From: an uncultured virus (IMG/VR IMGVR_UViG_3300035682_000026)
Taxonomy: Duplodnaviria; Heunggongvirae; Uroviricota; Caudoviricetes
IMG/VR virus record: IMGVR_UViG_3300035682_000026
Length of the DNA stretch: 64,000 nt
Reading direction: 5' to 3' (one strand)
Numbering within the stretch: position 1 is the stretch's first letter; every line of letters starts with the position of its first letter. Made by a program: the position numbers and the translations under genes. Below are positions 2,896 to 48,242 of the stretch, piece by piece. The notes below the pieces were generated by a model. That model was not told where the DNA came from. It was given only the letters and a program-made list of their open reading frames with translations, and did not search any database.

Positions 2896-2953
2896 TTTCT
2901 AATTCTACGCAGACGCTTAAACACCTGGGCCCCTATGAATTAGTAACAGTCTC
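2896..2953 (-). ncRNA. inter-tRNA structured motif, copy 1
   Basis: GAGACTGTTA-CTAATTC-ATAG...GCGTA-GAATTAG-AAA; repeated at 15059..15109. Confidence 0.55.
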
Positions 2954-3449: not shown

Positions 3450-3464
3450 TTTATTTTGTTGCAT

Positions 3465-3498
3465 AAAAAAACCCAGTTTAGATTTCTCTAACTGGGTT
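3465..3498 (-). terminator. attenuator terminator of tRNA operon 1
   Basis: AACCCAGTT-AGAGAAATCTA-AACTGGGTT followed by U tract. Confidence 0.9.
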
Positions 3499-3522
3499 AA
3501 TAAATAATACTTGCGTATTGTT

Positions 3523-3624
3523 TTACTTTATCATGTTTGACTTCATGACATACCCAGTTGTGCCTTGAGGCGTTCCGCCTTTAGGTTGATACTGTTTCGT
3601 TTGATATGTTTTTGTTGTCATCAT
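3523..3624 (-). CDS. leader peptide 1 MMTTKTYQTKQYQPKGGTPQGTTGYVMKSNMIK
   Basis: Between promoter and terminator; residues 3-25 all T/K/Y/Q/P/G. Confidence 0.85.
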   Translation of the reverse strand: MMTTKTYQTKQYQPKGGTPQGTTGYVMKSNMIK

Positions 3625-4793: not shown

Positions 4794-5615
4794 TTATGAT
4801 TTAAGGAGTAATTCTTTTATATCAGAAACTAATCTTCTATGACCATCACCATAAAGTTGCCAAGCTAACCCCATTGCTTTTAAATCATAATGTTTCAATA
4901 TTGTTGAATAATTAGTTTCTCCTTCTGGAAATCCAACTACATAAATACTATCAGCCAATTCAGCCGCTAAACGAATATCGTGTGTGGAGAATATAATCGT
5001 ATTTAATTCATTAGCAGCACTAATTTTATCAAATGATTGTTTTACTTTTTCAATATTCCCAACATCTAACCCAGAGAATGGTTCATCTAATATCATAAAG
5101 TGTTTAGATGTAAGCATTTGCTCAATGATTGCTGTTCTTTGTCTTTGACCACCAGACAACTCACACGAGTATTTATCTTTGTGTTCCATCAACCCCCAAT
5201 CAGTTAAATACTCATTAATTATAGTATCTTTTTCAGCTTTTGTAAGTGTTGATTTTCTCAAAGCATACTCACATATCTGCGTAATGGTTTTGTGTCTAAA
5301 AAGGGTGTATTTTTGGTCTACAAACCCCATATCACCTTTATCTAATGGTTTAGCATCATTCTCATCTTCTGTAGTTAAATCAGTAATAAGGACTTGACCT
5401 TGTGTTGGTTTAAGCAAACCAGTAAGTCCTTTGAAAAGAGTTGATTTCCCTCTACCAGAACGACCAATGAACGCAATAACTTGTCCAGTTGATTGGTGGC
5501 CTTCTCTAACAATATCTTTAATATCAAAATTGATATTTTTAAGAATTGATTTCCCATCGTAACCTAAGCTAACATCATTGATGTACAATAGGGTTTTTGT
5601 TTCTTTATAACTCAT
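4794..5615 (-). CDS. ABC transporter ATPase (NitT/TauT-like)
   Basis: GRSGRGKST, LSGGQ, ILDEP, H-loop. Confidence 0.95.
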   Translation of the reverse strand: MSYKETKTLLYINDVSLGYDGKSILKNINFDIKDIVREGHQSTGQVIAFIGRSGRGKSTLFKGLTGLLKPTQGQVLITDLTTEDENDAKPLDKGDMGFVDQKYTLFRHKTITQICEYALRKSTLTKAEKDTIINEYLTDWGLMEHKDKYSCELSGGQRQRTAIIEQMLTSKHFMILDEPFSGLDVGNIEKVKQSFDKISAANELNTIIFSTHDIRLAAELADSIYVVGFPEGETNYSTILKHYDLKAMGLAWQLYGDGHRRLVSDIKELLLKS

Positions 5616-5625
5616 AATTTTATAT

Positions 5626-5982
5626 TTAATAACTTATTGTTCCTAATCTGTCAAAACTCGTAGCACCTTTGGTTTTATTACATATCATTAAGATTTTTTT
5701 GGTTTCGTAGTGTTTTATGTAATTTTCATCAAAATCAACGCCACTATATTCATCAATAAGTGACCAATTATCAAAACCAATATCATGTAATTCATATAAG
5801 GGTTTTTCATCTCTCTGTTGTCTTAAATTTAAACTTTCTAACAATGCTGTTCTTTTCATTCGCATTAGTTGAGTTTCTATAATTTCAAAATCAACAAAAT
5901 CAATAGCTGCTGGATGAAACATTTTAACCTCAGCATTATCTGGAAGTTTATCCAATAACTCTTTTAGTTTTTTAACTTTCAT
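5626..5982 (-). CDS. hypothetical protein
   Basis: 118 aa ORF with its own TATCTTTG promoter. Confidence 0.65.
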   Translation of the reverse strand: MKVKKLKELLDKLPDNAEVKMFHPAAIDFVDFEIIETQLMRMKRTALLESLNLRQQRDEKPLYELHDIGFDNWSLIDEYSGVDFDENYIKHYETKKILMICNKTKGATSFDRLGTISY

Positions 5983-6112
5983 AATTTTATTTTTTATTAG
6001 ACCACAAAGATACGTTTATTTTCTAAAACACCAAATTAATTTATAGTTTTATTTTAAAATACTTGACTTTTTATAATATTTCTATATATTTATATGTATA
6101 CACAACGTAAAG

Positions 6113-6277
6113 ATGAAAAAAGAAATTAAACACAACAAATTAATGAATGTTAGAATGTCAGAAAGTCTAATAAAAGAATATAAAAATCATTGTGAAAATA
6201 ATGGTTTAGTTATATCAACAAGAATAAGGTTCCTTATCCAAAAAGATATTGAAGGTAAAATTAAAATAGAAAAATAA
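6113..6277 (+). CDS. small ribbon-helix-helix-like protein (54 aa)
   Basis: MKKEIKHNKLMNVRMSESLIKEYKNHCENNGLVISTRIRFLI; TAATG overlap with the HNH gene. Confidence 0.7.
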   Translation: MKKEIKHNKLMNVRMSESLIKEYKNHCENNGLVISTRIRFLIQKDIEGKIKIEK

Positions 6278-6909
6278 TGGAAAACAAGTGCTGTAGAGAA
6301 TGTGGTTTATCTAAACCATTATGTGATTTTAGTTTATGTACCAAAAATAAAGATGGTTACAATAACTTTTGTAAATCATGCCGTAACGCTAAAGATAAAC
6401 TTTATCGAGACCAAAATAAAGAAAAAATATCTAATCGTTTAAAAGAATATAATGCTAAAGAAAATGTAAAGAAAATGCGTAGTGAATATGCAAGAAAGTT
6501 TAGACAAGAAAACCTTTTAGAAATGAGAAAAAAAGCATTAGAAAAACAAAAACTATTAAGAGAGACTGACCCATTTTTTAGATTCAAACAAAGCGTTAGA
6601 AATAGGATTAACAATTCACTAAAACATAATGGTATTAGAAAAAATTCAAAAACTGCTATAATACTTGGTTGTTCTTTCCAAGATTTTAGGGATTATTTAG
6701 AATCTAAATTTGAATCGTGGATGAATTGGGATAACAGAGGGTTATATAATGGAACACCAGAATATGGTTGGGATATTGACCATATGATACCTTCATGTTC
6801 AGCTAAAACGGAAGAAGAATTAATTCAACTTAATCATTATTCCAATCTTCAACCTTTATGTAGTTACATTAATCGTGATATAAAAAGAAATAACCCTATA
6901 AAAATATAG
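6277..6909 (+). CDS. HNH-family endonuclease
   Basis: WDIDHMIP...NHYSNLQPL; paralog of 24509..25051. Confidence 0.85.
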   Translation: MENKCCRECGLSKPLCDFSLCTKNKDGYNNFCKSCRNAKDKLYRDQNKEKISNRLKEYNAKENVKKMRSEYARKFRQENLLEMRKKALEKQKLLRETDPFFRFKQSVRNRINNSLKHNGIRKNSKTAIILGCSFQDFRDYLESKFESWMNWDNRGLYNGTPEYGWDIDHMIPSCSAKTEEELIQLNHYSNLQPLCSYINRDIKRNNPIKI

Positions 6910-6919
6910 GGTTATTTTA

Positions 6920-7696
6920 TTAAAAATTAGAAAATCTAAATACAAGTTTTCGCAATCTAGTAAGTAAGAAATCTAAACAAACTCCAATTATAATTATAAT
7001 TGCTTGTATAGCAATAACTCTTCCGTTACTTCCAAGTCTATCACCATTTTTAATTAGTACACCTAAACCACCAGCGGCAACTAATATAGACTCTATCGTC
7101 ACCAACATAACCCATACAATTGCTAGATTTTGTCTAACCAATTCTATTACATAATCTAACCTACCTTTGATTACGACTTCCCATAAGGTTTCCCAATGAT
7201 TACACCCAAGTGTTTTAGCATGTTCAAATTCTTCATTTGGTATATCCTTAATCATTTGAATAAGACTGGTGATAAGAAATGTAGACATAAAGATAACAAG
7301 TACCCAAACTTGAATTTGTCTCGCATCTGAAATCATTATTGTAATGTAAAATGCTATTCCAGTTGGTGGTAAGTATCTTAATTTAGATAAGAATGTTCCT
7401 AATGATTTAGAGAAAGCAATTGTTGTTAAGTAAGCAAATATCATTGAGATAATCACTGAAAAGAATATTGCTTGGAAACACAATGATAGTGAACTAGCTA
7501 ACTGTGTAATAAGACCCTCTGACCATACATCACCTAAACCTTTAAATACTTGTGCAGGTGTTGGGAATAAATGTGTTGTTCCTATTGAACTGGACACAAA
7601 CCAAAATGTAATCAATAAAGCTAACCATACTGTTACAATGATTGTTTTTGAAGAACTTTTAAGTTCTTGAAACGGAGTAAAAAACTTTTTTATCAT
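6920..7696 (-). CDS. ABC transporter permease
   Basis: Multiple TM helices, EAA-like EHAKTLG. Confidence 0.9.
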   Translation of the reverse strand: MIKKFFTPFQELKSSSKTIIVTVWLALLITFWFVSSSIGTTHLFPTPAQVFKGLGDVWSEGLITQLASSLSLCFQAIFFSVIISMIFAYLTTIAFSKSLGTFLSKLRYLPPTGIAFYITIMISDARQIQVWVLVIFMSTFLITSLIQMIKDIPNEEFEHAKTLGCNHWETLWEVVIKGRLDYVIELVRQNLAIVWVMLVTIESILVAAGGLGVLIKNGDRLGSNGRVIAIQAIIIIIGVCLDFLLTRLRKLVFRFSNF

Positions 7697-7765
7697 TTTA
7701 TATAATTTAATTTATAAAAAAACCGTGACTATTTGCCACGGTTTTCTATATGTTTTATATGGCAA

Positions 7766-9580
7766 TTACTTTAATAACGTAATTTCAACTCTACGGTTTT
7801 TAGCTTTACCACTTGCAGTTGAGTTATCAGCTACTGGATTAGCATCACCTTTACCATCAACCGTTTGGAAACGGTCACCTGAGATACCTCTACCTTTCAA
7901 GTAACTTACAACTGATTGAGCACGACCATTAGATAATGTTACGTTACTAGCAGGATTACCTACGTTATCAGTATATCCAATCACTTTCAATTTAGTTTCC
8001 TCTGCTTGAGTTAACAAGTTATAGATGGTTTCTAAATCTTTGGTTGACCCAGAGATAGTTGCACTACCATTATCAAAGTTGATGTTCCATTGTCCGTTAG
8101 CTAATACTGAAGTTTTAGTTTCAGAATAACTAATTTTTTGAACACTACCTTTATCATTAACATTTGCAGATGTTAAGAAGTATAAGTTAACTGCATCATC
8201 GTAAGGTACAACACCATCTGGATTAGACTCATTAAAACCACATGGATTTAAGTCAGTCAAATAAGCTGAAACTTGTTCGTAAACTGCTTTATAACGATTT
8301 TTACCATCTGTGATACCGTAATACTGCATTGCATCAGCATAGTTAAATACACGTGAACCACCGATATTATAATCTAAACCATCTTTGGTACCTTTTTGAC
8401 CTTTAAACATATCATACCAGTATTTAGGTGTTTCAAAGTTATATGTTAAAGCTACAGCTTCTGAAGCTCTAACAGCCCATTCATCATATTGTTTAATTTG
8501 ATTAGAAGCAACAAATGTTTGTTTCAATATAGCGATAACTTCTTTATCGTGTTGCAAAGCCCATTCTTTAACACCTACAAGTGTTGTAGCCATTTGATTT
8601 ACAAACTCTTTAGTTGATACGATATCTGTAAAACCACTCAACGCATCAAAAGCCATTTTATCCCCTGGTGTCCATGTAGTTGCACCATCAATTTTATGAT
8701 TGATTGTTTTACCAGTTAATTTACCATTAACAACTTCTTTCAAAGGTACAGTATAACCAGTTTTTTGAGATTTAATCAATTCTTTTACAGAGTTAATATA
8801 ATCATCATCTTGTGATGGTACGAAGTTAATCGCATTGGCATCCCAAGTTGTTGGGTCTGGATTGATAGCAATTTTATTAGCAGCAGCATAGTTACATGCA
8901 ACTACCCAGTCACCATCACCAATTACTGAAGATATAACACAACCTTTCATTGATTGAGGATTATCTTTCCAAATTCTTGGTCCAATTACTTTATCTTCAC
9001 CATATGATAATCCATATGCTCCAAGAACTTGTACGTGATATTTACCTTTACCGAATTTTTCATCTAATGATTTTTGTGTAGTTGTAATATAGAATGGAAC
9101 ACCATCACCCATGATACTTACAGCAAATGCTGATTTATCTGATTTTGGATAAGCCACACCTGAAGCAAATTCTTCAACAAATTTAATTTGCATATCACGT
9201 AGACCACCTACCATGTCTTGTCTTACGATTTCTAAGTTAACACCTGCGGCTTCAATAAGAGACCCTTCAGTTGTTCTTGGTCCACCATTTGCAACAATCA
9301 TTCCAGCATTACCATTCCACGCATACTCCGCAATACGAATAAGTCCTTTCGAAGCTACTTCAGTAGATACCGTTTCTGATGGCAAAGGTAATTTAGCACC
9401 TTTAGTTACGTTGTTAAGGTCACCACCTTCAATTGTTAATCCAGTTAACTGTTTTGATACAGCCACTCTAAGTCCAGGTGCGAAAAAATACACACCAGTT
9501 AATAATACAGCAACACCTAGTGCTACGATAAAACCTTCTGCTAAGGTTGTTAATTTTTCTTGTTTAAGAATTCTTCCCAT
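7766..9580 (-). CDS. substrate-binding-like protein with C-terminal OmpA peptidoglycan-binding domain
   Basis: N-terminal TM; GYTDNVG...LSNGRAQSV...NRRVEI. Confidence 0.85.
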   Translation of the reverse strand: MGRILKQEKLTTLAEGFIVALGVAVLLTGVYFFAPGLRVAVSKQLTGLTIEGGDLNNVTKGAKLPLPSETVSTEVASKGLIRIAEYAWNGNAGMIVANGGPRTTEGSLIEAAGVNLEIVRQDMVGGLRDMQIKFVEEFASGVAYPKSDKSAFAVSIMGDGVPFYITTTQKSLDEKFGKGKYHVQVLGAYGLSYGEDKVIGPRIWKDNPQSMKGCVISSVIGDGDWVVACNYAAANKIAINPDPTTWDANAINFVPSQDDDYINSVKELIKSQKTGYTVPLKEVVNGKLTGKTINHKIDGATTWTPGDKMAFDALSGFTDIVSTKEFVNQMATTLVGVKEWALQHDKEVIAILKQTFVASNQIKQYDEWAVRASEAVALTYNFETPKYWYDMFKGQKGTKDGLDYNIGGSRVFNYADAMQYYGITDGKNRYKAVYEQVSAYLTDLNPCGFNESNPDGVVPYDDAVNLYFLTSANVNDKGSVQKISYSETKTSVLANGQWNINFDNGSATISGSTKDLETIYNLLTQAEETKLKVIGYTDNVGNPASNVTLSNGRAQSVVSYLKGRGISGDRFQTVDGKGDANPVADNSTASGKAKNRRVEITLLK

Positions 9581-9832
9581 TTGTTTTTATTTAATTGTTA
9601 TTGTTTAATTATTTAACGGTACAAAGATAATAATCTTTTTTAATGTACCAAACTTTTTTTACTTTTTTTTTATAAAATCGCCAATTAGAGAAACTACCCA
9701 TGCGATTTAAAACTCTGTTGACTTCCCATCTTACTCTATTGGCGTAGGCTTTCCTCTTTATATTTGTCCACCACTTTGCCTTGGGATACATAGTCAACCA
9801 AGGCTACTCGAACAGTTTTTTTATTATCTTAC

Positions 9833-10966
9833 TTAGAACATATCACCAAAACCACCTGATTTTGATTTATCTTCTGTTGTTAATTTGTAATCAACATTGT
9901 TGTATTTTTTAACATCTACAACATTACCATCACCACTTTGAATTTTATCTGCGATTGCATCTAAGTTAGCAAACAATTCATCAGAATTCAAATCGTAGTT
10001 TTGTGTCAAGCTTTCAATATCTTTAAAGTTACCAGAACTAATAGCAATATCAGCAGAAATTGTTGAAGTAATAACTTCCAACGCATAATCACGTTCCCAA
10101 TCACTAGAGAAGCCCATTGCTGATTTAGCAGCACTAGTTGCAGCATTTAATTTCTGACCAGTTTCGTAATCTTTTTTCAACATATCAACAGTGGCATCAA
10201 AATCTGAGATTTTAATATCCATACCAGTTTCAACCATAACCAATTTTTGATTGATTTTTTTCAATACATTAAAACGAGTTCCGTATTTTACTGTGAAGTC
10301 TTTAGATTGACTTGCTTTATTAGCAACTTGCATAGATGTAGCAAGTGTTTTTTGTAGTTCAGCAGCCAAATCAACATAGTCATCTTCGCTTTTAGCATCA
10401 ACACCCATCTTAGCCACCATAGCTTCCATATCAGCTTTGATTTTCTCAGCTTTACCTCTTAGACGTAAAGTTTCTTTATCACCTTTCTCAGCTTCTTCTT
10501 TTGCTCTCAACGATTCATTTTGCATATCTTGCTGTAATGACTTTAAATTACCCTTGGCAATTCTAAATGTAGCTTGATTAGCAATCATTTTCTGTCTTGT
10601 TATTTCTAATTGACCGAATGGGTCAAATCTAATAACTGATTTGTGCATGTATCTTGTAAGAGCACGAATACCTTTAAGGATTACTGGTGCCATGATTACC
10701 AAAGCTACAACAGCAATCGCAGTAGCAACCATTGCTAAGAATTGACCTAACGCAACCATAACTGGAGGCAATACATATACCCATAATAGGTATCCAAGCC
10801 CACCAAAGAATCCTAATTTTAAGAACCAATATAAGTTCTTTTCACCTTTTCTAAAGTTATCAACCTTAGTAACAATTTGACTCTCACTATAATTTTTCAT
10901 CATAGGTAGATTCATTAAATTTGCATTTAATGTTGGAGCCGATTTAAACTGAGTTTCTGTTCCCAT
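9833..10966 (-). CDS. membrane-anchored coiled-coil protein
   Basis: Two TM helices then long coiled coil; in operon with the ABC genes. Confidence 0.7.
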   Translation of the reverse strand: MGTETQFKSAPTLNANLMNLPMMKNYSESQIVTKVDNFRKGEKNLYWFLKLGFFGGLGYLLWVYVLPPVMVALGQFLAMVATAIAVVALVIMAPVILKGIRALTRYMHKSVIRFDPFGQLEITRQKMIANQATFRIAKGNLKSLQQDMQNESLRAKEEAEKGDKETLRLRGKAEKIKADMEAMVAKMGVDAKSEDDYVDLAAELQKTLATSMQVANKASQSKDFTVKYGTRFNVLKKINQKLVMVETGMDIKISDFDATVDMLKKDYETGQKLNAATSAAKSAMGFSSDWERDYALEVITSTISADIAISSGNFKDIESLTQNYDLNSDELFANLDAIADKIQSGDGNVVDVKKYNNVDYKLTTEDKSKSGGFGDMF

Positions 10967-10972
10967 TTTTAT

Positions 10973-11698
10973 TTATTTAACATTATTATTAATCCCTTGC
11001 TTTACTGTTTGAATAGAACCTGAAATTCTATCTTTAGCCATAGTGTTAGCAGCAAGTTTGCTATCAATTTCGCTAAGTTGTGGATTATATTTGCTATCAA
11101 TTGCTGATAGTTTTCTTGTACGGTCCTCAATTTGTGTTTTCAACGCTTCTAATTGATTTCTCATATCATTTAACTCATTGGTTAAAGATTGATTCTCATT
11201 TACTTTAAGCGATTCAACTTCTTGTCTTTTAGCTTGTCCTTTAGCTACGAAATCTTCGTATACTTTTTGAATCTCACCTAAATAGAAATCAGCTTGTTGT
11301 ATTAAACTAGTTTTAGAAATTGATTTATCCATAGCTGATACCATTTGAAATGCCATCGCATAAACAGTTGGATTATCAATACCACCACTGGCAACTGATT
11401 GATAAAACTCATAGAAATCAAAACCTGGTTGATTCAATGAATCAAAACCTTTTTGATAAAGTTCTAAAGCATTGTTTAAATACTCAGACGATGGTGCACT
11501 AGTAAAAACTGGTGTAGGTGCTGGTGTAAATGTTGGAGTTGCAGTTTCCGCAGTTGGAAAACTATAGGTAGAAGCAACTGGTACTTCTGTTGTTGCTGCA
11601 GTCGGAAACTTTGTAGTTGAAGCCGATTGTTTTGCAGTCTCTGTAGGTTTATCTGTTGATGTTTCATCACTAACAATAAACAAGTCTTTAAATCCCAT
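10973..11698 (-). CDS. coiled-coil protein, first gene of ABC/OmpA operon
   Basis: 241 aa, GFDFYEF motif, TATATTTG promoter upstream. Confidence 0.7.
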   Translation of the reverse strand: MGFKDLFIVSDETSTDKPTETAKQSASTTKFPTAATTEVPVASTYSFPTAETATPTFTPAPTPVFTSAPSSEYLNNALELYQKGFDSLNQPGFDFYEFYQSVASGGIDNPTVYAMAFQMVSAMDKSISKTSLIQQADFYLGEIQKVYEDFVAKGQAKRQEVESLKVNENQSLTNELNDMRNQLEALKTQIEDRTRKLSAIDSKYNPQLSEIDSKLAANTMAKDRISGSIQTVKQGINNNVK

Positions 11699-12456: not shown

Positions 12457-12477
12457 AGTATTAAATTTAAATATTAG

Positions 12478-12551
12478 TGGTGCGAGATGGATTTAAACCA
12501 CCGCCACCTAGCTTTTCAGGCTAGTGCTCTATCAGGCTGAGCTATCGCACC
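12478..12551 (-). tRNA. tRNA-Phe(GAA), second copy
   Basis: Stem CTAGC/GCTAG, loop CT-GAA-AA; T loop TTTAAAT. Confidence 0.85.
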
Positions 12552-12776
12552 TTTAATGGATAAACATTTCCAAGTGTCTATCCTTAGCAGTTTTTATATC
12601 TAGCATTGGCTGAAAACTACAAAACCAGTTCAATTTTTACTCTTGGAAGAGGGATAGTTGAACTCCAACCCAGTTGATATGGTACAACTATTAAACCCCG
12701 AACTTGAGTTGTCGGCAACTCTACGTAATCCTAACATTAAACTTCCTAGGTTTTAATGAAATTCTTACACACATTG

Positions 12777-12853
12777 TGGAGAAAGCAAGAATCGAACTTG
12801 CGACCTACGGACCCAATAAAGTGACCACATTCTGCCAACTGATATATTTCCCC
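12777..12853 (-). ncRNA. tRNA-like RNA with irregular anticodon arm
   Basis: Acceptor GGGGAAA/TTTCTCC and T arm good; anticodon arm poorly paired. Confidence 0.6.
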
Positions 12854-12993
12854 ATTTGTTAGTTATGTCTGTAGGACTTCTGACATAATTCCCTATGATT
12901 ATCTTTTTACAACCCCTCATAGAACTAACGTTTTTATTTATGCAAATATATACATAACATTTCAATTAAACAAGTTTTTATTAAACTTTTTTT

Positions 12994-15058: not shown

Positions 15059-15109
15059 TTTCTAATTCTACGCTTACAATATGTAGTTCTATGAATTAGT
15101 AACAGTCTC
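15059..15109 (-). ncRNA. inter-tRNA structured motif, copy 2
   Basis: Same conserved flanks as 2896..2953, different inner hairpin. Confidence 0.55.
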
Positions 15110-15498: not shown

Positions 15499-15513
15499 AA
15501 TTATTTATTGCAT

Positions 15514-15543
15514 AAAAAAAGCCTGACTTATTAGGTCAGGCTT
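15514..15543 (-). terminator. attenuator terminator of tRNA operon 2
   Basis: AAGCCTGAC-CTAATAA-GTCAGGCTT followed by U tract. Confidence 0.9.
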
Positions 15544-15568
15544 ATCATTTTTATTATTAACTTAAACG

Positions 15569-15655
15569 TTAACTTATGACAGTGTTTGACCTTCCTTGTG
15601 AGTAATCCTCAAAGGCTGCAGTTTCAAATCTAAAATCGTTAGTTAATGTTCTCAT
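15569..15655 (-). CDS. leader peptide 2 MRTLTNDFRFETAAFEDYSQGRSNTVIS
   Basis: Core DFRFETAAFED has 9 of 11 residues F/E/D/A. Confidence 0.8.
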   Translation of the reverse strand: MRTLTNDFRFETAAFEDYSQGRSNTVIS

Positions 15656-18444: not shown

Positions 18445-18508
18445 GTTTGTGTTTTATAATAAATATCAACTATTTTTGAATATTCATTAATAACTTTTAA
18501 AATGTTAG

Positions 18509-18582
18509 TACATCCACTAGGATTCGAACCTAGGACCCCTTGCATGTAAAACAAGTGCTCTAACCAACTGAGCTATAGATGC
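18509..18582 (-). tRNA. tRNA-Val(TAC)
   Basis: Loop TT-TAC-AT, canonical D and T arms. Confidence 0.93.
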
Positions 18583-18588
18583 ATATTG

Positions 18589-18669
18589 TACTCATGGTCG
18601 GACTCGAACCGACACGCCTTGCGACACCAGATTCTAAATCTGACGGGTCTACCATTCCCCCACACGAGC
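18589..18669 (-). tRNA. tRNA-Leu(TAG)
   Basis: Loop TT-TAG-AA, long variable arm. Confidence 0.92.
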
Positions 18670-18708
18670 TAGTTTTGCTTATCAAGGAAAGCATCGGTAA
18701 AACCTTTG

Positions 18709-18782
18709 TACCCCCGATGGGATTTGAACCCACACTGTACAGGGTTTAAGTCTGATGCCTCTTCCGATTGGGCTACAGGGGT
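18709..18782 (-). tRNA. tRNA-Leu(TAA), short variable arm
   Basis: Acceptor ACCCCTG/CGGGGGT, loop CT-TAA-AC, weak anticodon stem; overlaps the HNH stop codon. Confidence 0.75.
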
Positions 18783-19243
18783 CTTTTTTTGTTTCTAACT
18801 GTAGTTGTTTGGCTATGACAATTTGGACATAAAATTTTTAAATTTTCTAACCTATTATCCGTATTATCACCGTTGATATGTTCTAACTCTAAGGTTATTT
18901 CTTTACCATTCCATTCAACAATACCACATTCTTCACATTGTTTTGTTTTTATTCCTTCTTTGAATAATCTCTTTTTTAAACTATTACCGTTTTTATATGG
19001 TGAGTTTTCCACCAATGCATCGACTAATTCATAAGTTTTACCAAATGGGGTGAATTTTTCGCCTTGATTCCAAGCTGCACCAGTAAAATGACTAGTATCA
19101 ATTTCCCATTCTTTAAACTTAGCATATAATGTTTTGTAATTACCACCACATGCTTTCATATTCAACTCACGACATACACCAGCTACCGCTAATGATTTTC
19201 TAACCGCTTCTTCTAATTCTTCTTTAGTATGTTTATATCTCAT
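18773..19243 (-). CDS. HNH homing endonuclease
   Basis: LEHINGDNTDNRLENLKILCPNCHSQT. Confidence 0.92.
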   Translation of the reverse strand: MRYKHTKEELEEAVRKSLAVAGVCRELNMKACGGNYKTLYAKFKEWEIDTSHFTGAAWNQGEKFTPFGKTYELVDALVENSPYKNGNSLKKRLFKEGIKTKQCEECGIVEWNGKEITLELEHINGDNTDNRLENLKILCPNCHSQTTTVRNKKRPL

Positions 19244-19290
19244 ACTAATAAATATATAGAATTCTATAAAAAAGTAAACACTAAGTAAAA

Positions 19291-19324
19291 AAGTCCAGCG
19301 TGTCTACCATTCCACCACTCGGCC
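19291..19324 (-). pseudogene. 5' half of a tRNA-Leu, truncated in the anticodon loop
   Basis: GGCCGAG-TG-GTGGAATGGTAGACAC-G-CTGGA-CTT then unrelated sequence. Confidence 0.8.
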
Positions 19325-19572: not shown

Positions 19573-19597
19573 AGGCGTGAACAGGATTCGAACCTGT
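19573..19597 (-). pseudogene. 3' fragment (T arm and acceptor strand) of a tRNA, probably Cys
   Basis: ACAGG-TTCGAAT-CCTGT-TCACGCC-T (U73). Confidence 0.7.
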
Positions 19598-19599
19598 TA

Positions 19600-20049
19600 T
19601 TATTTAATATTCTCATACCACCAACCAAATTGTTTAGATGTTCTGATTCTATGGCAATTAGCACATAAAACATTACATTTTTCTATTTCTGCTAATATAG
19701 TGGCCCAATTATACGAATATATCATAGACGAGATACCATATTTTTTTTCTTTTTCATCTTTATGGTCAAAATCTAAAACTATTGGATTAGATTCGTCACA
19801 AACAACACAATGGTGTGTTTTAAAATATTCTAATAAATTTACCCTATTTTCAGATGTTTTTATTTTTTTTCTTATGTTAATACGTTCTAAATATTCTTCT
19901 TTATATTTGGCGTAATGTTCTTTATTTTTTCTTTTTTCTTTATAACAACTTTTACATTGTGAATGTAATTTATTTGTTTTTTTATTTTTGAAAAAGAAAT
20001 CACAAATTTCTTTTTCTTCACCACATTGTGTACATTTTTTTGTTTCCAT
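19600..20049 (-). CDS. HNH endonuclease
   Basis: CVVC...LDFDH...KCNVLCANCHR. Confidence 0.9.
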   Translation of the reverse strand: METKKCTQCGEEKEICDFFFKNKKTNKLHSQCKSCYKEKRKNKEHYAKYKEEYLERINIRKKIKTSENRVNLLEYFKTHHCVVCDESNPIVLDFDHKDEKEKKYGISSMIYSYNWATILAEIEKCNVLCANCHRIRTSKQFGWWYENIK

Positions 20050-20110
20050 ATTTGTTTTTATTATAAATATGGAATAAAACTGCAAAACACAAAATTTATT
20101 TGCAGTTTAG

Positions 20111-20183
20111 AGCCGAAGGTTGGATTCGAACCAACGAATAGTGGTTTTGCAAACCACCCCCTTAACCACTTGGGTACATCGGC
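20111..20183 (-). tRNA. tRNA-Cys(GCA)
   Basis: Stem GTGGT/ACCAC, loop TT-GCA-AA, U73. Confidence 0.92.
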
Positions 20184-20189
20184 ATTTAT

Positions 20190-20226
20190 TTTGCAGAGCC
20201 CTGTCTAACCACTCGGCCATCGTGCC
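20190..20226 (-). pseudogene. 5' half of a tRNA-Cys(GCA)
   Basis: GGCACGA-TG-GCCGAGTGGTTAGAC-A-GGGCT-CTGCAAA, ends after the anticodon loop. Confidence 0.8.
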
Positions 20227-20228
20227 AT

Positions 20229-20263
20229 AAAAAAAACCCATTTAATTTGACTTAAATGGGTTT
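20229..20263 (-). terminator. attenuator terminator of tRNA operon 3
   Basis: AAACCCATTTAA-GTCAAA-TTAAATGGGTTT followed by U tract. Confidence 0.9.
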
Positions 20264-20287
20264 CATATTTTGAATGATTAAATTTAA

Positions 20288-20362
20288 TCAACAACCATAA
20301 CCCATCGTGCCCACCACTAGTGAACATAATACAAGGACCAATAACATTGCTAAATTTTTCAT
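20288..20362 (-). CDS. leader peptide 3 MKNLAMLLVLVLCSLVVGTMGYGC
   Basis: Core LLVLVLCSLVV has 10 of 11 residues L/V/C. Confidence 0.8.
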   Translation of the reverse strand: MKNLAMLLVLVLCSLVVGTMGYGC

Positions 20363-20402
20363 TTTTATTTTAATTTTTATGTGGTTTCTACCACGTTGTT
20401 TA

Positions 20403-20443
20403 ATAAATATAAGCAAATATACAAAAAGATTCCTAATAGTCAA
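20403..20443 (-). promoter_or_regulatory. promoter of tRNA operon 3
   Basis: TTG...TATATTTG followed by TATATTTATT. Confidence 0.75.
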
Positions 20444-20509
20444 GTATTTTATTGATTTATTTTTAAAATATATTGACAATTTTTAAAATATTCCTTATAT
20501 TTAAGAATT

Positions 20510-20836
20510 ATGGGCTACGTTTACCTCTTATTACAAACCGACATTGATGGAAATTGTTCCCACAAAATAGGTATAACTAAAAACGACCCAAACCTTCGTT
20601 TAAAGCAATTGCAAACAGGTAATCCTAATAAAATAAGTCTTCTTAAACAATACTATTCAAAAAACTATCTAAAAGTAGAACAATGGATGCACCGAAAACA
20701 TTCTGGCTCCAAATCTGAAGCCAAGAATGAGTGGCGTATACTTACCGATGAGAATGTGTTCTCATTTATTGATGATTGTAAAGAAGCTGATGAAACCATC
20801 AAATTCCTACTTGAAAATAATTCTCTTTATAAATAA
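20510..20836 (+). CDS. GIY-YIG nuclease (T5orf172/MUG113-like)
   Basis: YVYLL...KIGIT...RLKQLQTGNP...EW. Confidence 0.85.
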   Translation: MGYVYLLLQTDIDGNCSHKIGITKNDPNLRLKQLQTGNPNKISLLKQYYSKNYLKVEQWMHRKHSGSKSEAKNEWRILTDENVFSFIDDCKEADETIKFLLENNSLYK

Positions 20837-22011
20837 AATTCTTTACGAATCCTTACCAATAAATCATTAACCAAATTCTTATCAACACTATTTGGTAAGT
20901 CTGAATCTTCAAATACTGAATCCATATTTGCAATCGCAGCATCTGCAGTTTCAATTAGAGTTTCCAAATCAACTTCACCACGTCTAATTTTAAGAAGTTC
21001 TGCAGCATCTTGTCGTCTGACTTGTATACCTTCTCCACGACCAATTTCAGTAGCCATATTAATAAGTCTAATACAATGCATCATATTCTTTCCATCGATA
21101 CGTTGACCATGTTCTTGTGTTTCAACATAACGAGCTTCATTACGGTTCTCTAACCATTCTTGATACTCTCTATAATCTTTACAATGCTCTGAGTAACCAT
21201 CTTTGTTATAGATTAGGTTACAGATAGCTTTCTCACCTTTAGGAATGCTAGAAAGTCTTAATTGATTTGAAATACCATAATTAATCTTACCATCTTCATC
21301 TTCATGACCAGTATTAATAAGTCCCTTATATCCGAAGCCCATTGATTTACCAGCATCTTTTCGAATTTCTTTTGAAGCTGTTCGTTTAGCTTCAGTATGT
21401 CTATCTGAATGTAATAACTCACTTACTTTATCATAAAATAAAGCATATACATCTCTAGCATTTGATAAATTAACAGCACCAATGTATTTTTCTTCAAACC
21501 TACCATCATTCCATTTTTTCCATGGAATGGTTTTTTCTCCATCAATAACATAACAGAAATCCAATAGGTCTTTACGAACTACTTTATCTTTCTCCCAATT
21601 TTGTTTTTTATTAAGACCCTTAGCTTTTTTAATTTGTTGTCTAGCATAACCCCCAAAACTATCCTTACATACTTTGGTAATAAACTTTTCCTTTTGTTCA
21701 AGGATAAGGTCAAACAATGGATGTTTGCTAATTATACAATCTTCTGGACTATTAAGAAGTTCTAGTACTGTTGGGTTGTTAGAACCCATAAGTTCTAGGA
21801 AACGTCTAATCTCCCATCCAGTATAATCCTTATTTACATTGATTTGTTCCACGTAACCAGTACCTAGAATGTTTTCCAGAGGTAGGATATAAACAAATTT
21901 TTTGTCTACATCACTTTCAGGTGTCTGTGTTCCATATGCTTGAGAACCAATAATGGTTTCAAATAAGATAAGACCGTTATCTACAAGATACTCATGTGTT
22001 ATCTGTTTCAT
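20827..22011 (-). CDS. nucleotidyltransferase (Pol-beta superfamily, phage type)
   Basis: GSQAYGTQTPESDVD, NNPTVLELL, KNMMHCIRL. Confidence 0.85.
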   Translation of the reverse strand: MKQITHEYLVDNGLILFETIIGSQAYGTQTPESDVDKKFVYILPLENILGTGYVEQINVNKDYTGWEIRRFLELMGSNNPTVLELLNSPEDCIISKHPLFDLILEQKEKFITKVCKDSFGGYARQQIKKAKGLNKKQNWEKDKVVRKDLLDFCYVIDGEKTIPWKKWNDGRFEEKYIGAVNLSNARDVYALFYDKVSELLHSDRHTEAKRTASKEIRKDAGKSMGFGYKGLINTGHEDEDGKINYGISNQLRLSSIPKGEKAICNLIYNKDGYSEHCKDYREYQEWLENRNEARYVETQEHGQRIDGKNMMHCIRLINMATEIGRGEGIQVRRQDAAELLKIRRGEVDLETLIETADAAIANMDSVFEDSDLPNSVDKNLVNDLLVRIRKEFYL

Positions 22012-26383: not shown

Positions 26384-26587
26384 CTACCAACTATCGTAGT
26401 CGGTTATGTCTTTTTCTATTGTATTATCACCCCATTTTATTATAACTTTTACGTTACAACCAATACCTGTATGGGTGAAACAATATGTTATTTTTGCACT
26501 TAGATTATCACCATACACAATGTTAATCGCTTGTATCAATTTGTCTAATGTCTTTTGTTCTACTTCGTTTAATTCAAATGATGCCAT
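26384..26587 (-). CDS. hypothetical protein
   Basis: 67 aa, TAATG-coupled to the PARP gene. Confidence 0.65.
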   Translation of the reverse strand: MASFELNEVEQKTLDKLIQAINIVYGDNLSAKITYCFTHTGIGCNVKVIIKWGDNTIEKDITDYDSW

Positions 26588-27879
26588 TAGTTTCCAATTT
26601 CAATTAAATGCGATACAGTACATTGTGCTGCGTTATAAACGATGTATTCATTGTTTCTTAAATCAGCACCACCTTTGGCAAATACTGAATCGTAATCGTC
26701 TTTTTTCAATACTTTATCAGATAATGAATAACAACTAGATGTGTGGTTAAGGATTTCTTTTTGATTTCCTAAATGAACATCAAACAACGCTAAATATGCT
26801 TTATCATCACCACCTTTGGTCCAATAAGAACCTCTCAACGATGAATAACCGATAGATTTCTGTGCTTTATCAGCAAAGTAGATACCATCACCAAACATAC
26901 TACCAGTATGAACAGCACCAGAAGGTCTAATCAATAAACCAGTTTGTAAGATGTTAAACCAGTTCTCATTACGGGAACCATGCCAGTAAAGTCTTCTTTT
27001 CTTAACCTTAGCTTGTTCAAAGTGAGTGTCAAATACTTTTTGTGTTTTGGTATTAACAACCTTAAAGACTTGTTTAACTTGGTGAGCGTTAGGGCCCATA
27101 AGCTTAGTGACAAGAGCAAGTGTTTCAGTATCTTCTTCAACATCAACTCTAAGACCCATTTGGTCAAGGATTGTAATTTGGTCAACTTGTTCTTCTTCTG
27201 GAGCGTCAGCAGCGGCTTTTTGTTGTTTAATCAATTGAACCTGACCTGCCATCGTATCTAATGTAGATTGTTCTTGTCCAATGAATTTTTGTGCTTTTTC
27301 TAAGGAATTAACATCGTTTACATCATTGATAAGATAATCACGTACATTATCCATTCTTCTAGGGATAATGGTATATAATTTAAGTAACAAGTCATTGATG
27401 TCTTTCTTATCAACATTCAAGACCAATTTAAAACTAATAGTATCAATTAATTCCTGAGCAGCATTTACTTGTTGTTCAGATACAGCTTCTTGAGTAACCT
27501 TATAGTTTCTTTGGATTGCTTTGTTTGCAAAGCTCATTAATTGGTCGATAAGTCTTTTAACCACAGAGTTTTTAATCTCTTCAGTTTTAGCAGTAGCTGT
27601 TGAACCACTGGTAGCATCAATTACTGGTTCAGCTAAGAATTCAGTAACATCAGTATAACCTTTTGTTTTAGATAGTTTCTGTTTAAGAACACTATCCCAT
27701 TTGCTTGAAGGTTTAATCTCAGTAGTTAAACTACGTCCAACTCTACCGTATTCACATTTGATAGTACCATCGGAAAGTTCTTCCATGATATAAACTTTGT
27801 TACTATTATCAGTCATTCCGTTATCAACAGAAACATGAATTAATTTGGCGTATCTTAAACCGTTTTCTTTAATTATCAT
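26587..27879 (-). CDS. PARP-like ADP-ribosyltransferase (WGR, regulatory and catalytic domains)
   Basis: YGRVG; LYTIIP; WHGS, GSMFGDGIYFA, NEYIVY (H-Y-E triad). Confidence 0.9.
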   Translation of the reverse strand: MIIKENGLRYAKLIHVSVDNGMTDNSNKVYIMEELSDGTIKCEYGRVGRSLTTEIKPSSKWDSVLKQKLSKTKGYTDVTEFLAEPVIDATSGSTATAKTEEIKNSVVKRLIDQLMSFANKAIQRNYKVTQEAVSEQQVNAAQELIDTISFKLVLNVDKKDINDLLLKLYTIIPRRMDNVRDYLINDVNDVNSLEKAQKFIGQEQSTLDTMAGQVQLIKQQKAAADAPEEEQVDQITILDQMGLRVDVEEDTETLALVTKLMGPNAHQVKQVFKVVNTKTQKVFDTHFEQAKVKKRRLYWHGSRNENWFNILQTGLLIRPSGAVHTGSMFGDGIYFADKAQKSIGYSSLRGSYWTKGGDDKAYLALFDVHLGNQKEILNHTSSCYSLSDKVLKKDDYDSVFAKGGADLRNNEYIVYNAAQCTVSHLIEIGN

Positions 27880-28190: not shown

Positions 28191-29231
28191 TTAAACCATT
28201 TTAAAGAACATCTCCCTTACTTTGCTGGAAAGATATTTATTTATTTCTTTAGGTTCAATGTTATTGGTTACCATAGTATCCATTTCTTCTTTTACTACAT
28301 CATTTACAACCCATCTGATAACATCACCCATCTTTTTAACATCGATTGGTTCATCATTAATGAATGTATTTTCAAGTGCTTGATTGAAACGACTTTCAGT
28401 AACTGCATATTCTACAAATTTTTGAATACCCTCCAATTTTTCAACATCAACACTTGCAAGAGTTTTAACCTTAGAACTAGAGTGTTTTTCACCTTTCACC
28501 TTAAAGCGATGAGTGATACCTTTTACTTCAGTTGACCAAACAATACCTTCACCGATTCCAGAGAAGCCAAAAGCTTTCGCTACAGGACATTCTTCTTCAA
28601 CAGCGATAGTAAGTTCAGATAATTGATTTTGAACCAAAGCAGGCATGTTAAAATCAATATCAATTGAAAATGTTTCATAGTCATCAATATTGTAGATTTT
28701 GTTTTCTGGTGATTTCAAATATGAATAATCAACCCAATAAGCTGGTTGGTTTTTTAATTCTTCTTCATCAGCAACGATTGGACTAATCTTAACCCCAAAA
28801 ATAAAGAAAGATTTAGGGAGATTGGTAATACCAACACCTTTTTGAATATTACCACCACACCACTCACCATAAATAGTGACTGTATTATGTTCGTAACTAA
28901 CATTAGTTTTTTCTTGAATCTCACGGAATAACTTATTAAAAGCATCTTTGTTAGATTCAGCAAAGAAAGCGAAAGCTGCGTTATCTTTTTCTGGTGTAAT
29001 GATATTCTCACGAGATTGTGCCCAAAACCCACCATCTTTATTATAAGATACAGCAGCATTGGTTCCATGTAACTTAACAGTACCTTTAAAGGTAAGTGTT
29101 GGTTTAGGTAATGTATGGTCATAAATAGCATCACCATTTTCATCTAACCCAACATAGTTGTAATGTCTGTTTATATTCGTCACGACACTTCTAAACTGCT
29201 CGATAGACGGAAATTTTATCATTTTTTTCAT
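28191..29231 (-). CDS. RNA ligase, Rnl2 family
   Basis: KLHGTN, IYGEW, GEGIV, FKVK. Confidence 0.85.
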   Translation of the reverse strand: MKKMIKFPSIEQFRSVVTNINRHYNYVGLDENGDAIYDHTLPKPTLTFKGTVKLHGTNAAVSYNKDGGFWAQSRENIITPEKDNAAFAFFAESNKDAFNKLFREIQEKTNVSYEHNTVTIYGEWCGGNIQKGVGITNLPKSFFIFGVKISPIVADEEELKNQPAYWVDYSYLKSPENKIYNIDDYETFSIDIDFNMPALVQNQLSELTIAVEEECPVAKAFGFSGIGEGIVWSTEVKGITHRFKVKGEKHSSSKVKTLASVDVEKLEGIQKFVEYAVTESRFNQALENTFINDEPIDVKKMGDVIRWVVNDVVKEEMDTMVTNNIEPKEINKYLSSKVREMFFKMV

Positions 29232-32128: not shown

Positions 32129-33253
32129 TTAAAGCATTTTATATAATAATTTATCATCGTATTTAAATATAAAGTCTTCAACAGACTCTATTTTACCTTC
32201 TGCCAATCCAAAGTATAAACCTGTAAATGGTTTTAAGGTAGTGTTATCACATACCTCAAAAACTTTCATTGCATATCTCTTTTTTTCAGCTGGAGTTATT
32301 TCTTTAGGTTTAGCTAATCTCAATATTTCCCACGTAACATTTAACGTTTCAGTTAATTTATCGTAGTTTTCTTTTAACTTATAAAGTTCATCTTTTCTTT
32401 CTGGGAAAGTTGATGCGAACTCTTCAATCTCATTAGTCTTAACTATTGTAAGGATATTATGTTCAGCTGTTTTACCTTTTAAGTGGTGAACAGCCAGGTA
32501 CGCTGGATTTTTTATTTTAACACGATTAAAATTAGCATCCACAACAACATACCCTTCTTCTGACCATGGCATACCTTCAAATGTATGTAACAAAGCACCT
32601 ATATCTTTCGCATTCAAGTCAAACTTTTTAACCAGTGGTAACCCAAGTGATATAGCAACCATTTCCAAGTCTTTTCCAGATAGTTCTACTAGAGTTTCTC
32701 TGTTTCTAACTGTAAGGATTGTAGCAGATGATTCACCATGTGGTTTAACCACTATATTATATGGTGTAGTTAATTCAAAAACGTATATGTGATTTTTATC
32801 TAACAAACAATTATTAAAATTATATTTGTTATTTACAGTATCCCAAAACAATTCATTGAATGTGGTACCCATTTTATTGTTTACTTCACCTTCACCTTCG
32901 GCTGTACCAGTAGTAGCAGCAAACCATGTTTCTTTATTCCAGTCCCAATATACTTGAATCATGGTACCATCTAGTTTTTCTAACACACTAGCAGTATTCC
33001 AATCTATTTTAGCTGCGTTATTCTCTTGTGAGTTAAAAAATTTTCTGAATGCTAGTGACATTACTTTCCATGTATCTATTTCAAGTATTAACCCACGACA
33101 ATCTTGCATCTCTGGCAACCCCATAAGAGTTGGTGACACTAGCTGGTCATATTTTAAAAGAATTTTTGAAGGGTATCTCTTAACCTTTAATTGAAAGTCT
33201 AAGATTGTTTTTTCTAATCCGTGTTTAATTATATATTTTTGTATTGTTAACAT
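32129..33253 (-). CDS. RNA ligase, T4 Rnl1-like
   Basis: CRGLIL, KFFN, EKLDGT, FEL, EGYVV, RVKIK. Confidence 0.9.
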   Translation of the reverse strand: MLTIQKYIIKHGLEKTILDFQLKVKRYPSKILLKYDQLVSPTLMGLPEMQDCRGLILEIDTWKVMSLAFRKFFNSQENNAAKIDWNTASVLEKLDGTMIQVYWDWNKETWFAATTGTAEGEGEVNNKMGTTFNELFWDTVNNKYNFNNCLLDKNHIYVFELTTPYNIVVKPHGESSATILTVRNRETLVELSGKDLEMVAISLGLPLVKKFDLNAKDIGALLHTFEGMPWSEEGYVVVDANFNRVKIKNPAYLAVHHLKGKTAEHNILTIVKTNEIEEFASTFPERKDELYKLKENYDKLTETLNVTWEILRLAKPKEITPAEKKRYAMKVFEVCDNTTLKPFTGLYFGLAEGKIESVEDFIFKYDDKLLYKML

Positions 33254-33257
33254 AATA

Positions 33258-33617
33258 TTATTCATCAATTGGTTCATCACCATTTTTTCTTCTTAAATCA
33301 TTTATTCTTTTAATAAAATCATCATAGGTTTCACTTTTGTGTTTATCTTTTAAATAATTTGTATAATCATTATTATTTCTTTCCATATTTTCAACTATTT
33401 TCTTCGCAGAAAACATGGAACATATTTGACTAAGTAAATTAATATCTTTTTCATCATACATCAAACTACCCAACAAAACTAAAACACCACCCGATTGTGA
33501 TATCATTAAATCTTTAGAATTTTTACCTTCTAACATAAGGGTTTGACCCATTTCTATAAACTTAGCACTAAGGTCTAAGTGTCTATCTTCATTTTTCATA
33601 TGATTAAATTTTGACAA
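33258..33617 (-). CDS. hypothetical protein
   Basis: 119 aa ORF, start uncertain. Confidence 0.6.
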   Translation of the reverse strand: MSKFNHMKNEDRHLDLSAKFIEMGQTLMLEGKNSKDLMISQSGGVLVLLGSLMYDEKDINLLSQICSMFSAKKIVENMERNNNDYTNYLKDKHKSETYDDFIKRINDLRRKNGDEPIDE

Positions 33618-39921: not shown

Positions 39922-40110
39922 ATTTTATTCTTTTATATCAACAAAGATAATGGTAAACCCACCTTCTTTTTGAAATCTTAATTCACCATGATAACCACTT
40001 GCATCAGCTATCTTTCTATACTTGTCAACTATGAGGTCAAAATCTTTCATTAAGTTAACAGTTTTTTCTTTTCCTAAATTTCTCACTAGATTTCCCATAT
40101 TCATTAAAAT

Positions 40111-40146
40111 AAAAAAACCTGACTAGTTTTGATGTAGTCAGGTTTT
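40111..40146 (-). terminator. attenuator terminator of tRNA operon 4
   Basis: AAAACCTGACTA-CATCAAAAC-TAGTCAGGTTTT followed by U tract. Confidence 0.9.
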
Positions 40147-40168
40147 AATTGTTATATTTTGTTTTGAG

Positions 40169-40270
40169 TTATACTTCCGTACCACCTTGACAATTACACA
40201 TACCTGCTACTGGGCGACTATTACGTCTCCAATTGCTAATCGATATCATATGTATGTTAATTGTTGTCAT
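40169..40270 (-). CDS. leader peptide 4 MTTINIHMISISNWRRNSRPVAGMCNCQGGTEV
   Basis: Residues 4-19 all I/N/H/M/S/W/R. Confidence 0.88.
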   Translation of the reverse strand: MTTINIHMISISNWRRNSRPVAGMCNCQGGTEV

Positions 40271-48167: not shown

Positions 48168-48242
48168 TTGCGGAAAATGGGAGTCGAACCCAATATTACG
48201 AGCTTATGAGACTAGTGTGATATTCCGTTTCACTCTTCCGCA
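48168..48242 (-). tRNA. tRNA-Met(CAT), possibly initiator-like
   Basis: Acceptor TGCGGAA/TTCCGCA, loop CT-CAT-AA; lacks the three G-C pairs of typical initiators. Confidence 0.75.

Follow-up and report, generated by a model that had tools for sequence, protein, structure and literature searches.

The window analysed here, a 64,000-nt stretch of DNA from an uncultured virus, belongs to a large phage rich in AT. ARAGORN made 27 calls in it, one of them a tmRNA, and its protein-coding genes include those for ClpP, an RlaP-type nucleotidyltransferase, a PARP-domain protein, and ligases of phage type. Its relatives in IMG/VR reach 369 kb, and its best named protein matches were to the huge phages LR745206 and LR756502, to Tenacibaculum and Prevotella phages, and to the Cellulophaga phage phi4:1. 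The host is presumably a member of the Bacteroidota. On the minus strand, a short ORF lies between a predicted promoter and a group of tRNA genes. In the direction of transcription, a TTG at 20443 and an TATATTTG element at 20421–20414 are followed by a predicted start at ~20409, an AUG at 20362, a TGA ending at 20288, and a terminator at 20264–20233. After the eight U of the terminator (to 20229) come the 5′ half of a tRNA-Cys, tRNA-Cys(GCA), a pair of HNH-type ORFs accompanied by fragments of tRNAs, and the genes for Leu(TAA), Leu(TAG), and Val(TAC). The original prediction placed a leader ahead of tRNA-Cys, Leu(TAA), Leu(TAG), and Val, and this gene order was confirmed on the minus strand; the ORF, its coordinates, its 24-amino-acid peptide, and the pairing it described were also all correct. 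The features are as follows.

20229..20443, minus: putative tRNA-Cys/Leu/Leu/Val attenuator (promoter, 24-codon ORF, antiterminator strand, terminator, then tRNA genes)
20441..20443, minus: TTG, the -33 element of a promoter predicted to be of the Bacteroidota primary-sigma type, at equal spacing ahead of all four leaders in the window
20414..20421, minus: -7 element TATATTTG, giving a predicted transcription start at ~20409 by the T-12 numbering of PMC6847099
20403..20410, minus: ATATTTAW motif, possibly a second (phage) promoter
20381..20394, minus: small 5′ UTR hairpin; similar hairpins lie ahead of leaders 1 and 2, and only some relatives have one
20288..20362, minus: leader ORF of 24 codons, ATG 20362 to TGA 20288; first AUG past the predicted start, with A at -3 and -6
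20315..20353, minus: control codons 4–16 (Leu ×6, Val ×3, Cys ×1); in the model, stalls up to codon 16 keep the antiterminator free
20299..20306, minus: antiterminator 5′ strand (codons 20–22), pairing with 20256–20263
20229..20264, minus: intrinsic terminator hairpin and 8-U tract, the tract beginning 51 nt past the stop codon
20189..20226, minus: remains of an older tRNA-Cys, namely its 5′ half up to and including the GCA anticodon, directly after the terminator
20110..20183, minus: tRNA-Cys(GCA), first gene under the putative control (64 bits)
20077..20108, minus: 10-bp hairpin past tRNA-Cys, possibly an internal terminator (-12.4 kcal/mol; equalled in 0 of 200 shuffles)
19600..20049, minus: 149-amino-acid ORF with Cys/His motifs, which we take to be HNH-like; no Pfam match
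19574..19597, minus: tRNA 3′ remnant (T arm and acceptor strand), probably from the older tRNA-Cys
19291..19324, minus: Leu-type tRNA 5′ half (identity by eye), cut off ahead of the second HNH gene
18773..19243, minus: HNH endonuclease ORF, 156 amino acids (blastn matches to annotated HNH genes; HNH_3 below the cut-off)
18708..18782, minus: tRNA-Leu(TAA)
18588..18669, minus: tRNA-Leu(TAG)
18508..18582, minus: tRNA-Val(TAC)

The predicted promoters in the window match the -33/-7 consensus of the Bacteroidetes given in PMC6847099 (TTTG/TANNTTTG), and the same pattern occurred upstream of 47 of the 63 related leaders described below. Of 66 long ORFs, 15, including HNH/GIY-YIG-type genes, have the ATATTTAW motif in the 60 nt that precede them (2.4% expected); so do 40 of the 63 leaders. 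The motif is also present at 20063–20070, 19248–19255, 18459–18466, and elsewhere, and is a candidate phage promoter.

The genes for tRNA-Cys and tRNA-Leu(TAA) are separated by 1.3 kb containing the two HNH-type ORFs, tRNA fragments, and the terminator-like hairpin; neither this stretch nor the tRNA-Cys 5′ half behind the terminator figured in the original prediction. As judged from the sequence, an older tRNA-Cys (19574–20226) appears to have been split by a cassette consisting of a replacement tRNA-Cys, the hairpin, an ATATTTAW motif, and the HNH-like gene; in another locus (L131), a similar tRNA-Cys 5′ half and 3′ remnant with complementary acceptor strands flank an inserted cassette. A similar insertion may have taken place at the second HNH gene, as the Leu-type 5′ half ahead of it suggests. 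In this isolate, Leu/Leu/Val might be partly released from control by the leader, with the hairpin at 20077–20108 acting as a terminator and the ATATTTAW motifs at 20070 and 19255 as promoters. Among 11 relatives compared, besides the window-identical L001, only L125 has a similar hairpin. Neither a strong terminator nor a -7 element was found in 25 distinct Cys-to-next-tRNA gaps by a U-run scan, which also missed the hairpin at 20077–20108, and in L007 the four tRNAs lie compactly.

The leader ORF and its homologs

The leader contains six Leu codons (TTA ×3, TTG, CTT, and CTA), four Val codons (GTC, GTA, and GTG ×2), and two Cys codons (TGT ×2). Eleven of codons 2–18 specify Leu, Val, or Cys, against a background of 15% in the long ORFs (P = 4.6e-6), and non-cognate codons lie in its first five or six positions. 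The use of both TTA/TTG and CTT/CTA codons had been read as a match to the two Leu isoacceptors. These codons are indeed present, but the match carries almost no evidential weight because the same four make up ~99% of Leu codons in the long ORFs of the window. Leu codon use in the leaders was likewise close to the background (TTA, 54% versus 53%; CTT, 21% versus 21%), with only CTA raised (16% versus 8%), and the isoacceptor match was therefore set aside as evidence. Among the Val control codons, the otherwise common GTT is nearly absent (1 of 56, versus 53% in the background).

Homologs were sought via the neighbouring nucleotidyltransferase gene, which yielded 80 loci: 32 with tRNA-Cys, three with other tRNAs only, and 45 without tRNA. 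All 32 loci holding tRNA-Cys had a leader and a terminator 48–55 nt past its stop. Together with the window, they gave 20 distinct peptides of 24–27 amino acids, ending at three different stop codons and varying mostly at third codon positions (620, versus 442 and 288 at the other two). This pattern, with the conserved frame and length and the A at -3 and -6, suggests indirectly that the leader is translated by the ribosome. A search with the leader-codon pattern matched 13 viral stretches, four of which were on new contigs; the terminator and Cys array followed in three, and the fourth contig ended just past the stop. This narrow pattern had no match in GTDB genomes, where the similarly narrow terminator-plus-tRNA-Cys pattern had six: one with the leader (L131) and five without a cognate leader. 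Patterns as narrow as these may well miss copies in bacteria. L131 (CAUYTX010000092.1) is a 5.6-kb contig in a Gammaproteobacteria-labelled genome that carries the phage element almost unchanged, and is probably a misbinned piece of phage.

It had been noted that the leader alone resembles a small hydrophobic peptide. Its product could be a membrane or lysis/exclusion peptide, the terminator merely ending its mRNA and the tRNAs being transcribed otherwise. In keeping with this explanation, the N terminus is basic and the peptide hydrophobic, and frame and length are conserved. The substitution spectrum points the other way. In an 11-column core around an invariant Cys, 187 of 220 positions are Leu, Val, or Cys, with 5 Ile, 6 Ala, no Phe, no Met, and 22 polar or Pro/Gly residues, so that the free exchange with Ile and Phe at constant hydrophobicity named beforehand as evidence for a membrane peptide was not seen. 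The C-terminal residues vary along with the terminator arm, there is no Pfam match, and three sister peptides in the window are polar despite the same anatomy. The gap between the terminator and the tRNA, 10–24 nt in most relatives, also leaves too little room for a separate promoter. We regard a membrane peptide as very improbable.

Terminator, antiterminator, and the modelled switch

ATGGGTT in the leader (20305..20299) is complementary to AACCCAT (20262..20256) in the terminator (20264..20233), whose 8-T run occupies 20236..20229. This pairing, part of the original prediction, was confirmed and covaries in relatives. In a MAFFT alignment of the 20 distinct leaders, the antiterminator helix was paired in 92.5% of 160 cells, with two-sided changes in six of the eight pairs; slid registers gave 29–58%, a control that favours both structures because they were derived from the same sequences. 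The two-sided changes occurred in 14 cells and were register-specific. The terminator was paired in 97.5%, with two-sided changes in seven of eight pairs. The leader strand follows the terminator arm at the expense of the peptide, which reads MG, VG, SD, or FG at this point in different phages, and the duplex begins 16–24 nt upstream of the stop in all 20. Cognate strands had a mean duplex energy of -13.2 kcal/mol, versus -10.5 kcal/mol for crossed strands (0 of 100,000 permutations). The duplex of the window itself is among the weaker ones (-10.7 kcal/mol, rank 15 of 20, with 32 of 300 shuffles equally good), and reaches -15.6 when extended through the spacer.

In a footprint model that keeps bases up to 13 nt beyond the A site unpaired, the antiterminator formed in nascent RNA with A sites up to codon 16 and was lost from codon 17 on. 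The pairing strand had been described as lying within a ribosome footprint of the stop codon; the location stands, but the ribosome would not have to reach the stop codon to throw the switch. With the antiterminator already lost once the A site is at codon 17, the final Cys comes too late to act as a control codon. All 20 homologs switched 8–10 codons ahead of the stop, and the three sister elements likewise switched in the last third of their ORFs. With no ribosome, the nascent RNA made the antiterminator, so the untranslated default in the model is ON. At equilibrium, the full-length RNA formed the terminator whatever the ribosome position; the switch must therefore be kinetic and co-transcriptional. 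The folds also show an 8-bp hairpin over codons 13–19 and a longer 5′ helix, possibly pause or anti-antiterminator elements. On transcription–translation coupling in the Bacteroidota, nothing was found in the literature searched, including passages of PMC7858274. Four RNA runs containing 6–15% of the words gave only short contigs of related strains, with strain differences and neither ends nor strand.

The same fold might instead be stabilised by an uncharged tRNA or a protein rather than by the ribosome, as in a T-box or a protein-dependent antiterminator. Ten bases of the ORF (20302–20311) are identical to the 5′ end of the Cys half-tRNA, which would suit such a device. The identity is not kept in relatives, where the longest match is 3–7 nt in 21 rows, and we consider it due to chance. 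Neither a T-box nor any other known leader family was found at the Rfam cut-off, and the matches to PyrR, Qrr, and S15 were weak and far below the cut-offs. Such a switch would also need no ORF with cognate codons, and this explanation is hardly credible.

Sister elements and regrouped tRNA arrays

Three sister elements occur in the window.

3464..3624, minus: sister element 1, T/K/Y/Q/P/G leader and terminator; 16 of the 17 first codons cognate; array Pro, Lys ×2, Gly, Gln, Tyr, and Thr (TGT anticodon, 1814–1887, Rfam match)
15513..15655, minus: sister element 2, F/E/D/A leader and terminator; 9 of the 17 first codons cognate; array Phe, Glu, Asp, and Ala
40110..40270, minus: sister element 4, I/N/H/M/S/W/R leader and terminator; 15 of the 17 first codons cognate; array Ser, Trp, His, Ile, Met, Asn, Arg ×2, and Ser

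All four multi-tRNA arrays thus share a promoter, an ORF of 24–33 codons, and a terminator, with 51, 48, 51, and 51 nt from the stop to the U tract. That shared architecture argues for a leader had been stated in the original prediction, and it is borne out by the common anatomy of the three sisters with polar peptides. The four arrays (G/K/P/Q/T/Y, A/D/E/F, C/L/V, and H/I/M/N/R/S/W) cover all 20 amino acids, once each. Leader and array matched at 51 of 68 codons (16, 9, 11, and 15), whereas random partitions gave a mean of 17 and a maximum of 43, and none of 500,000 reached 51. There are 19 terminator-like hairpins in the window, four of them ahead of tRNAs; none of the other 15 has a stand-alone short ORF at such a spacing. 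The filter for stand-alone ORFs passed three of the four leaders; the Cys/Leu/Val leader was missed on account of a frame that stays open beyond the predicted start, as far upstream as a TTG at 20479.

A few features near these arrays lie outside this anatomy. A tRNA with anticodon TTA (12776–12853, minus) is ochre-reading according to ARAGORN (32 bits in Rfam) and sits beside a second Phe(GAA) at 12477–12551, with a promoter at 12973 and no leader; tRNAs with CTA and TCA anticodons occur in relatives. A two-block intergenic motif is repeated at 15059–15109 and 2896–2953 (minus), after tRNA-Asp and tRNA-Gly of different arrays, and may act as a processing signal or as a small structured RNA. 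Some CAT-anticodon tRNAs stand alone or just upstream of a leader (48169–48241 in the window; also L081, L082, L105, L108, L109, and L111). Placed there, they would escape attenuation, as might be expected of initiator tRNAs: a stall in elongation does not register a lack of these.

In more distantly related phages, the tRNAs are grouped differently and the leaders are rewritten to match. The groupings in G002/G003 include Glu/Tyr, Ile/Gly/Ala, and a Leu/Arg/Asn/Thr/Cys/Val/Ile/Met array behind an N/L/T/M/V/C/I/R leader, while G010 has a K/F/W/H leader ahead of a His/Phe/Lys/Leu/Trp array. LR745206 and LR756502 each have seven leaders in six fetched regions per genome, with Arg/Ser, Asp/Pro, and Gln-only arrays among them; the Gln-only arrays (L107 and L113, respectively) follow poly-Gln leaders of 16–17 codons, the simplest form of the device. 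A search for the terminator-plus-tRNA pattern in viruses matched 14 stretches, nine on contigs already in the set, and matching leaders were found in four of the five new ones. In the new contigs, Cys was regrouped with Trp/His/Thr/Glu/Asp/Arg or with Phe/Trp/Gly/Lys/Thr/Arg. The codon swap proposed as an experiment thus has a natural counterpart, the leaders being rewritten wherever Cys, Leu, or Val tRNAs are grouped differently.

For a wider comparison, 63 distinct leaders from loci up to L117 were chosen by spacing, hairpin energy, and an A-rich start only, with truncated arrays kept. Of 1032 core residues, 678 were cognate, versus a mean of 238 for shuffled arrays (0 of 20,000 shuffles), and although such permutation counts overstate significance because the related sequences are not independent, the regroupings themselves are distinct events. 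All 20 amino acids were enriched when their own tRNA was in the array, even Trp (8 of 179, versus 0 of 853). Some arrays have an extra tRNA missing from the leader, such as His in the F/E/D/A array of L044. No leader was found ahead of the Phe/Glu/Asp/Ala array and Tyr/Ala/Trp/Met group of G004 and G005, respectively, or in the two Lak-A1 regions examined, and in L146 a terminator is present but no ORF passed the leader scan.

These regroupings bear on whether the same switch is a general sensor of translation speed, in which read-through follows whenever the ribosome lags or is absent and the identity of the codons does no more than adjust the response. The modelled ON default without a ribosome and the non-cognate codons in the first five or six positions would both suit such a sensor. 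It would need no codons matched to the array, yet leader composition tracks the array over many regroupings, and we consider this explanation unlikely.

The device was found in three of five cultured phages examined, within the fetched regions scanned. Cellulophaga phage phi4:1 (L151, KC821632) has three arrays, three terminators, and two ATG leaders; its third leader is a GTG-start frame in the annotated gp075, rich in T/K/G/I/V/D/A/R, with its stop 50 nt before the U tract. The Cellulophaga phage Calle_1 (L152, MT732432) has three elements, one with 78-nt spacing, and Tenacibaculum phage Gundel_1 (L153, MT732474) has two. No leader was found at the array of PAU, and a search for tRNA matches in PTm1 gave none at E ≤ 1e-8. 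In the phages with the device, the elements are unannotated or labelled as hypothetical proteins.

Proposed attenuation of phage tRNA genes

The locus has a short ORF between a predicted promoter and the genes, cognate control codons, an intrinsic terminator, and an exclusive antiterminator within reach of the ribosome. We therefore propose, with a probability of about 0.9, that a multivalent ribosome-mediated transcription attenuator controls the Cys/Leu/Val tRNA genes of this phage. The ORF, cognate codons, terminator, and exclusive antiterminator come from sequence comparison and the switch position from the model; promoter use, translation, regulated read-through, and feedback are what we infer.

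Host RNA polymerase would start at the -33/-7 promoter, and a ribosome would translate the 24-codon leader, as its conservation suggests. With an ample supply of ternary complexes carrying Leu-, Val-, and Cys-tRNA, the ribosome would be past codon 17 before the terminator is complete and would cover the GAUGGGUU strand; the terminator would then form, 51 nt beyond the stop, and transcription would stop with 10 nt still to go to the first tRNA sequence. A ribosome that dwells on codons 4–16 would leave the GAUGGGUU strand free to pair with the 5′ arm of the terminator, and the polymerase would read into the tRNA genes. Several amino acids in one leader would act as an OR gate, and the four loops in the window would together cover all 20. 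Because the output is the tRNAs that read the control codons, the loop would exert negative feedback on decoding supply, making induction self-limiting. The ribosome would be blind to the cause of a shortage of charged tRNA, and amino-acid starvation would also trip the switch; synthesis of tRNA would be of help where the cause is a lack of tRNA or damage to it.

The Leu/Val content of the Cys/Leu/Val leader recalls the ilv leaders. In attenuators as described in PMC1183508, slow decoding of regulatory codons permits read-through, and the enterobacterial examples (ilvGMEDA, ilvBN, and thr; leu, trp, his, and pheA) resemble the phage element in their leader ORF and in the ribosome-set choice between antiterminator and terminator. 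Whereas those attenuators regulate biosynthetic enzymes, the phage element would regulate tRNA genes, its product being the sensor itself. The genes behind the phage leader are tRNAs and HNH-type ORFs, unlike the genes behind leaders of the ilvL, leuL, and thrL type, which make, import, or charge an amino acid. The phage leaders also differ in tiling all 20 amino acids and in being rewritten upon array regrouping; with an anti-antiterminator that is no more than a candidate, their untranslated default may be read-through. The pheM attenuator of pheST in Escherichia coli is a case of leader-peptide attenuation of aminoacyl-tRNA supply, with feedback on charged tRNA; it is chromosomal and acts on a synthetase and one amino acid, whereas the phage element is viral and would act on the tRNA genes themselves and several amino acids. 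T-box riboswitches also sense tRNA charging and act by antitermination, but bind tRNA directly and have no translated ORF, and no Rfam match to the T-box, which has a specifier loop in stem I and a T-box bulge, was found here at the gathering score or up to E = 10. T-boxes may precede tRNA genes in Firmicutes, although we found no such case in the literature searched. In cyanobacteria, a trn array under the repressor TrcR is a spare tRNA array that is turned on when translation is impaired; TrcR is a protein repressor at a promoter, whereas the phage element would work by codon-resolved attenuation. In the mycobacterial polycysteine attenuators (10.1101/834739), the codons of a short ORF likewise sense an amino acid, Cys included; these are leaderless and belong to bacterial protein-coding operons, as opposed to tRNA genes. 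Leader-peptide attenuation of tRNA genes or phage tRNA arrays was not found in the literature searched, which excluded subscription journals and preprint supplements. As read from the sequences, the new element here would be the use of attenuation, known for amino-acid genes, in the control of tRNA genes, whose products would in turn act on the sensor.

It has long been asked why phages carry tRNA genes, and codon compensation, the replacement of degraded host tRNA, and escape from anticodon nucleases have been proposed; anticodon-nuclease defences cut host tRNAs. A tentative extension, to which we give somewhat less than even odds, is that tRNA supply in Bacteroidota-type phages of ~70 kb to 640 kb is kept in balance by a codon-resolved homeostat. 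Each block of tRNAs would be gated by a leader that samples the codons of that block, so that depleted or cut host tRNAs are detected and only the corresponding replacements are transcribed. If so, the leaders would be a readable record of the tRNA shortages to which phages respond, and the reason for tRNA carriage by phages could be tested directly. The switch would mean that phage tRNAs are an on-demand supply, and it predicts which perturbation induces which block. This can be tested now because cultured phages of Cellulophaga, whose host strains are non-pathogenic, carry the device, and the leaders might also serve as ready-made multi-amino-acid sensors for the Bacteroidota.

Other genes in the window include a possible RNA-repair set near the tRNA arrays, composed of the PARP-domain protein, the RlaP-type nucleotidyltransferase, and two ORFs resembling RNA ligases (by eye).

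26587–27879, 20827–22011, 28191–29231, and 32129–33283, minus: RNA-repair candidates

The phage tmRNA (49287–49662, minus) adjoins ClpP (49780–50499) and a DnaJ-like gene, and an ABC-transporter-like cluster with an OmpA-domain protein (4794–11698, minus) is an unusual phage cargo.
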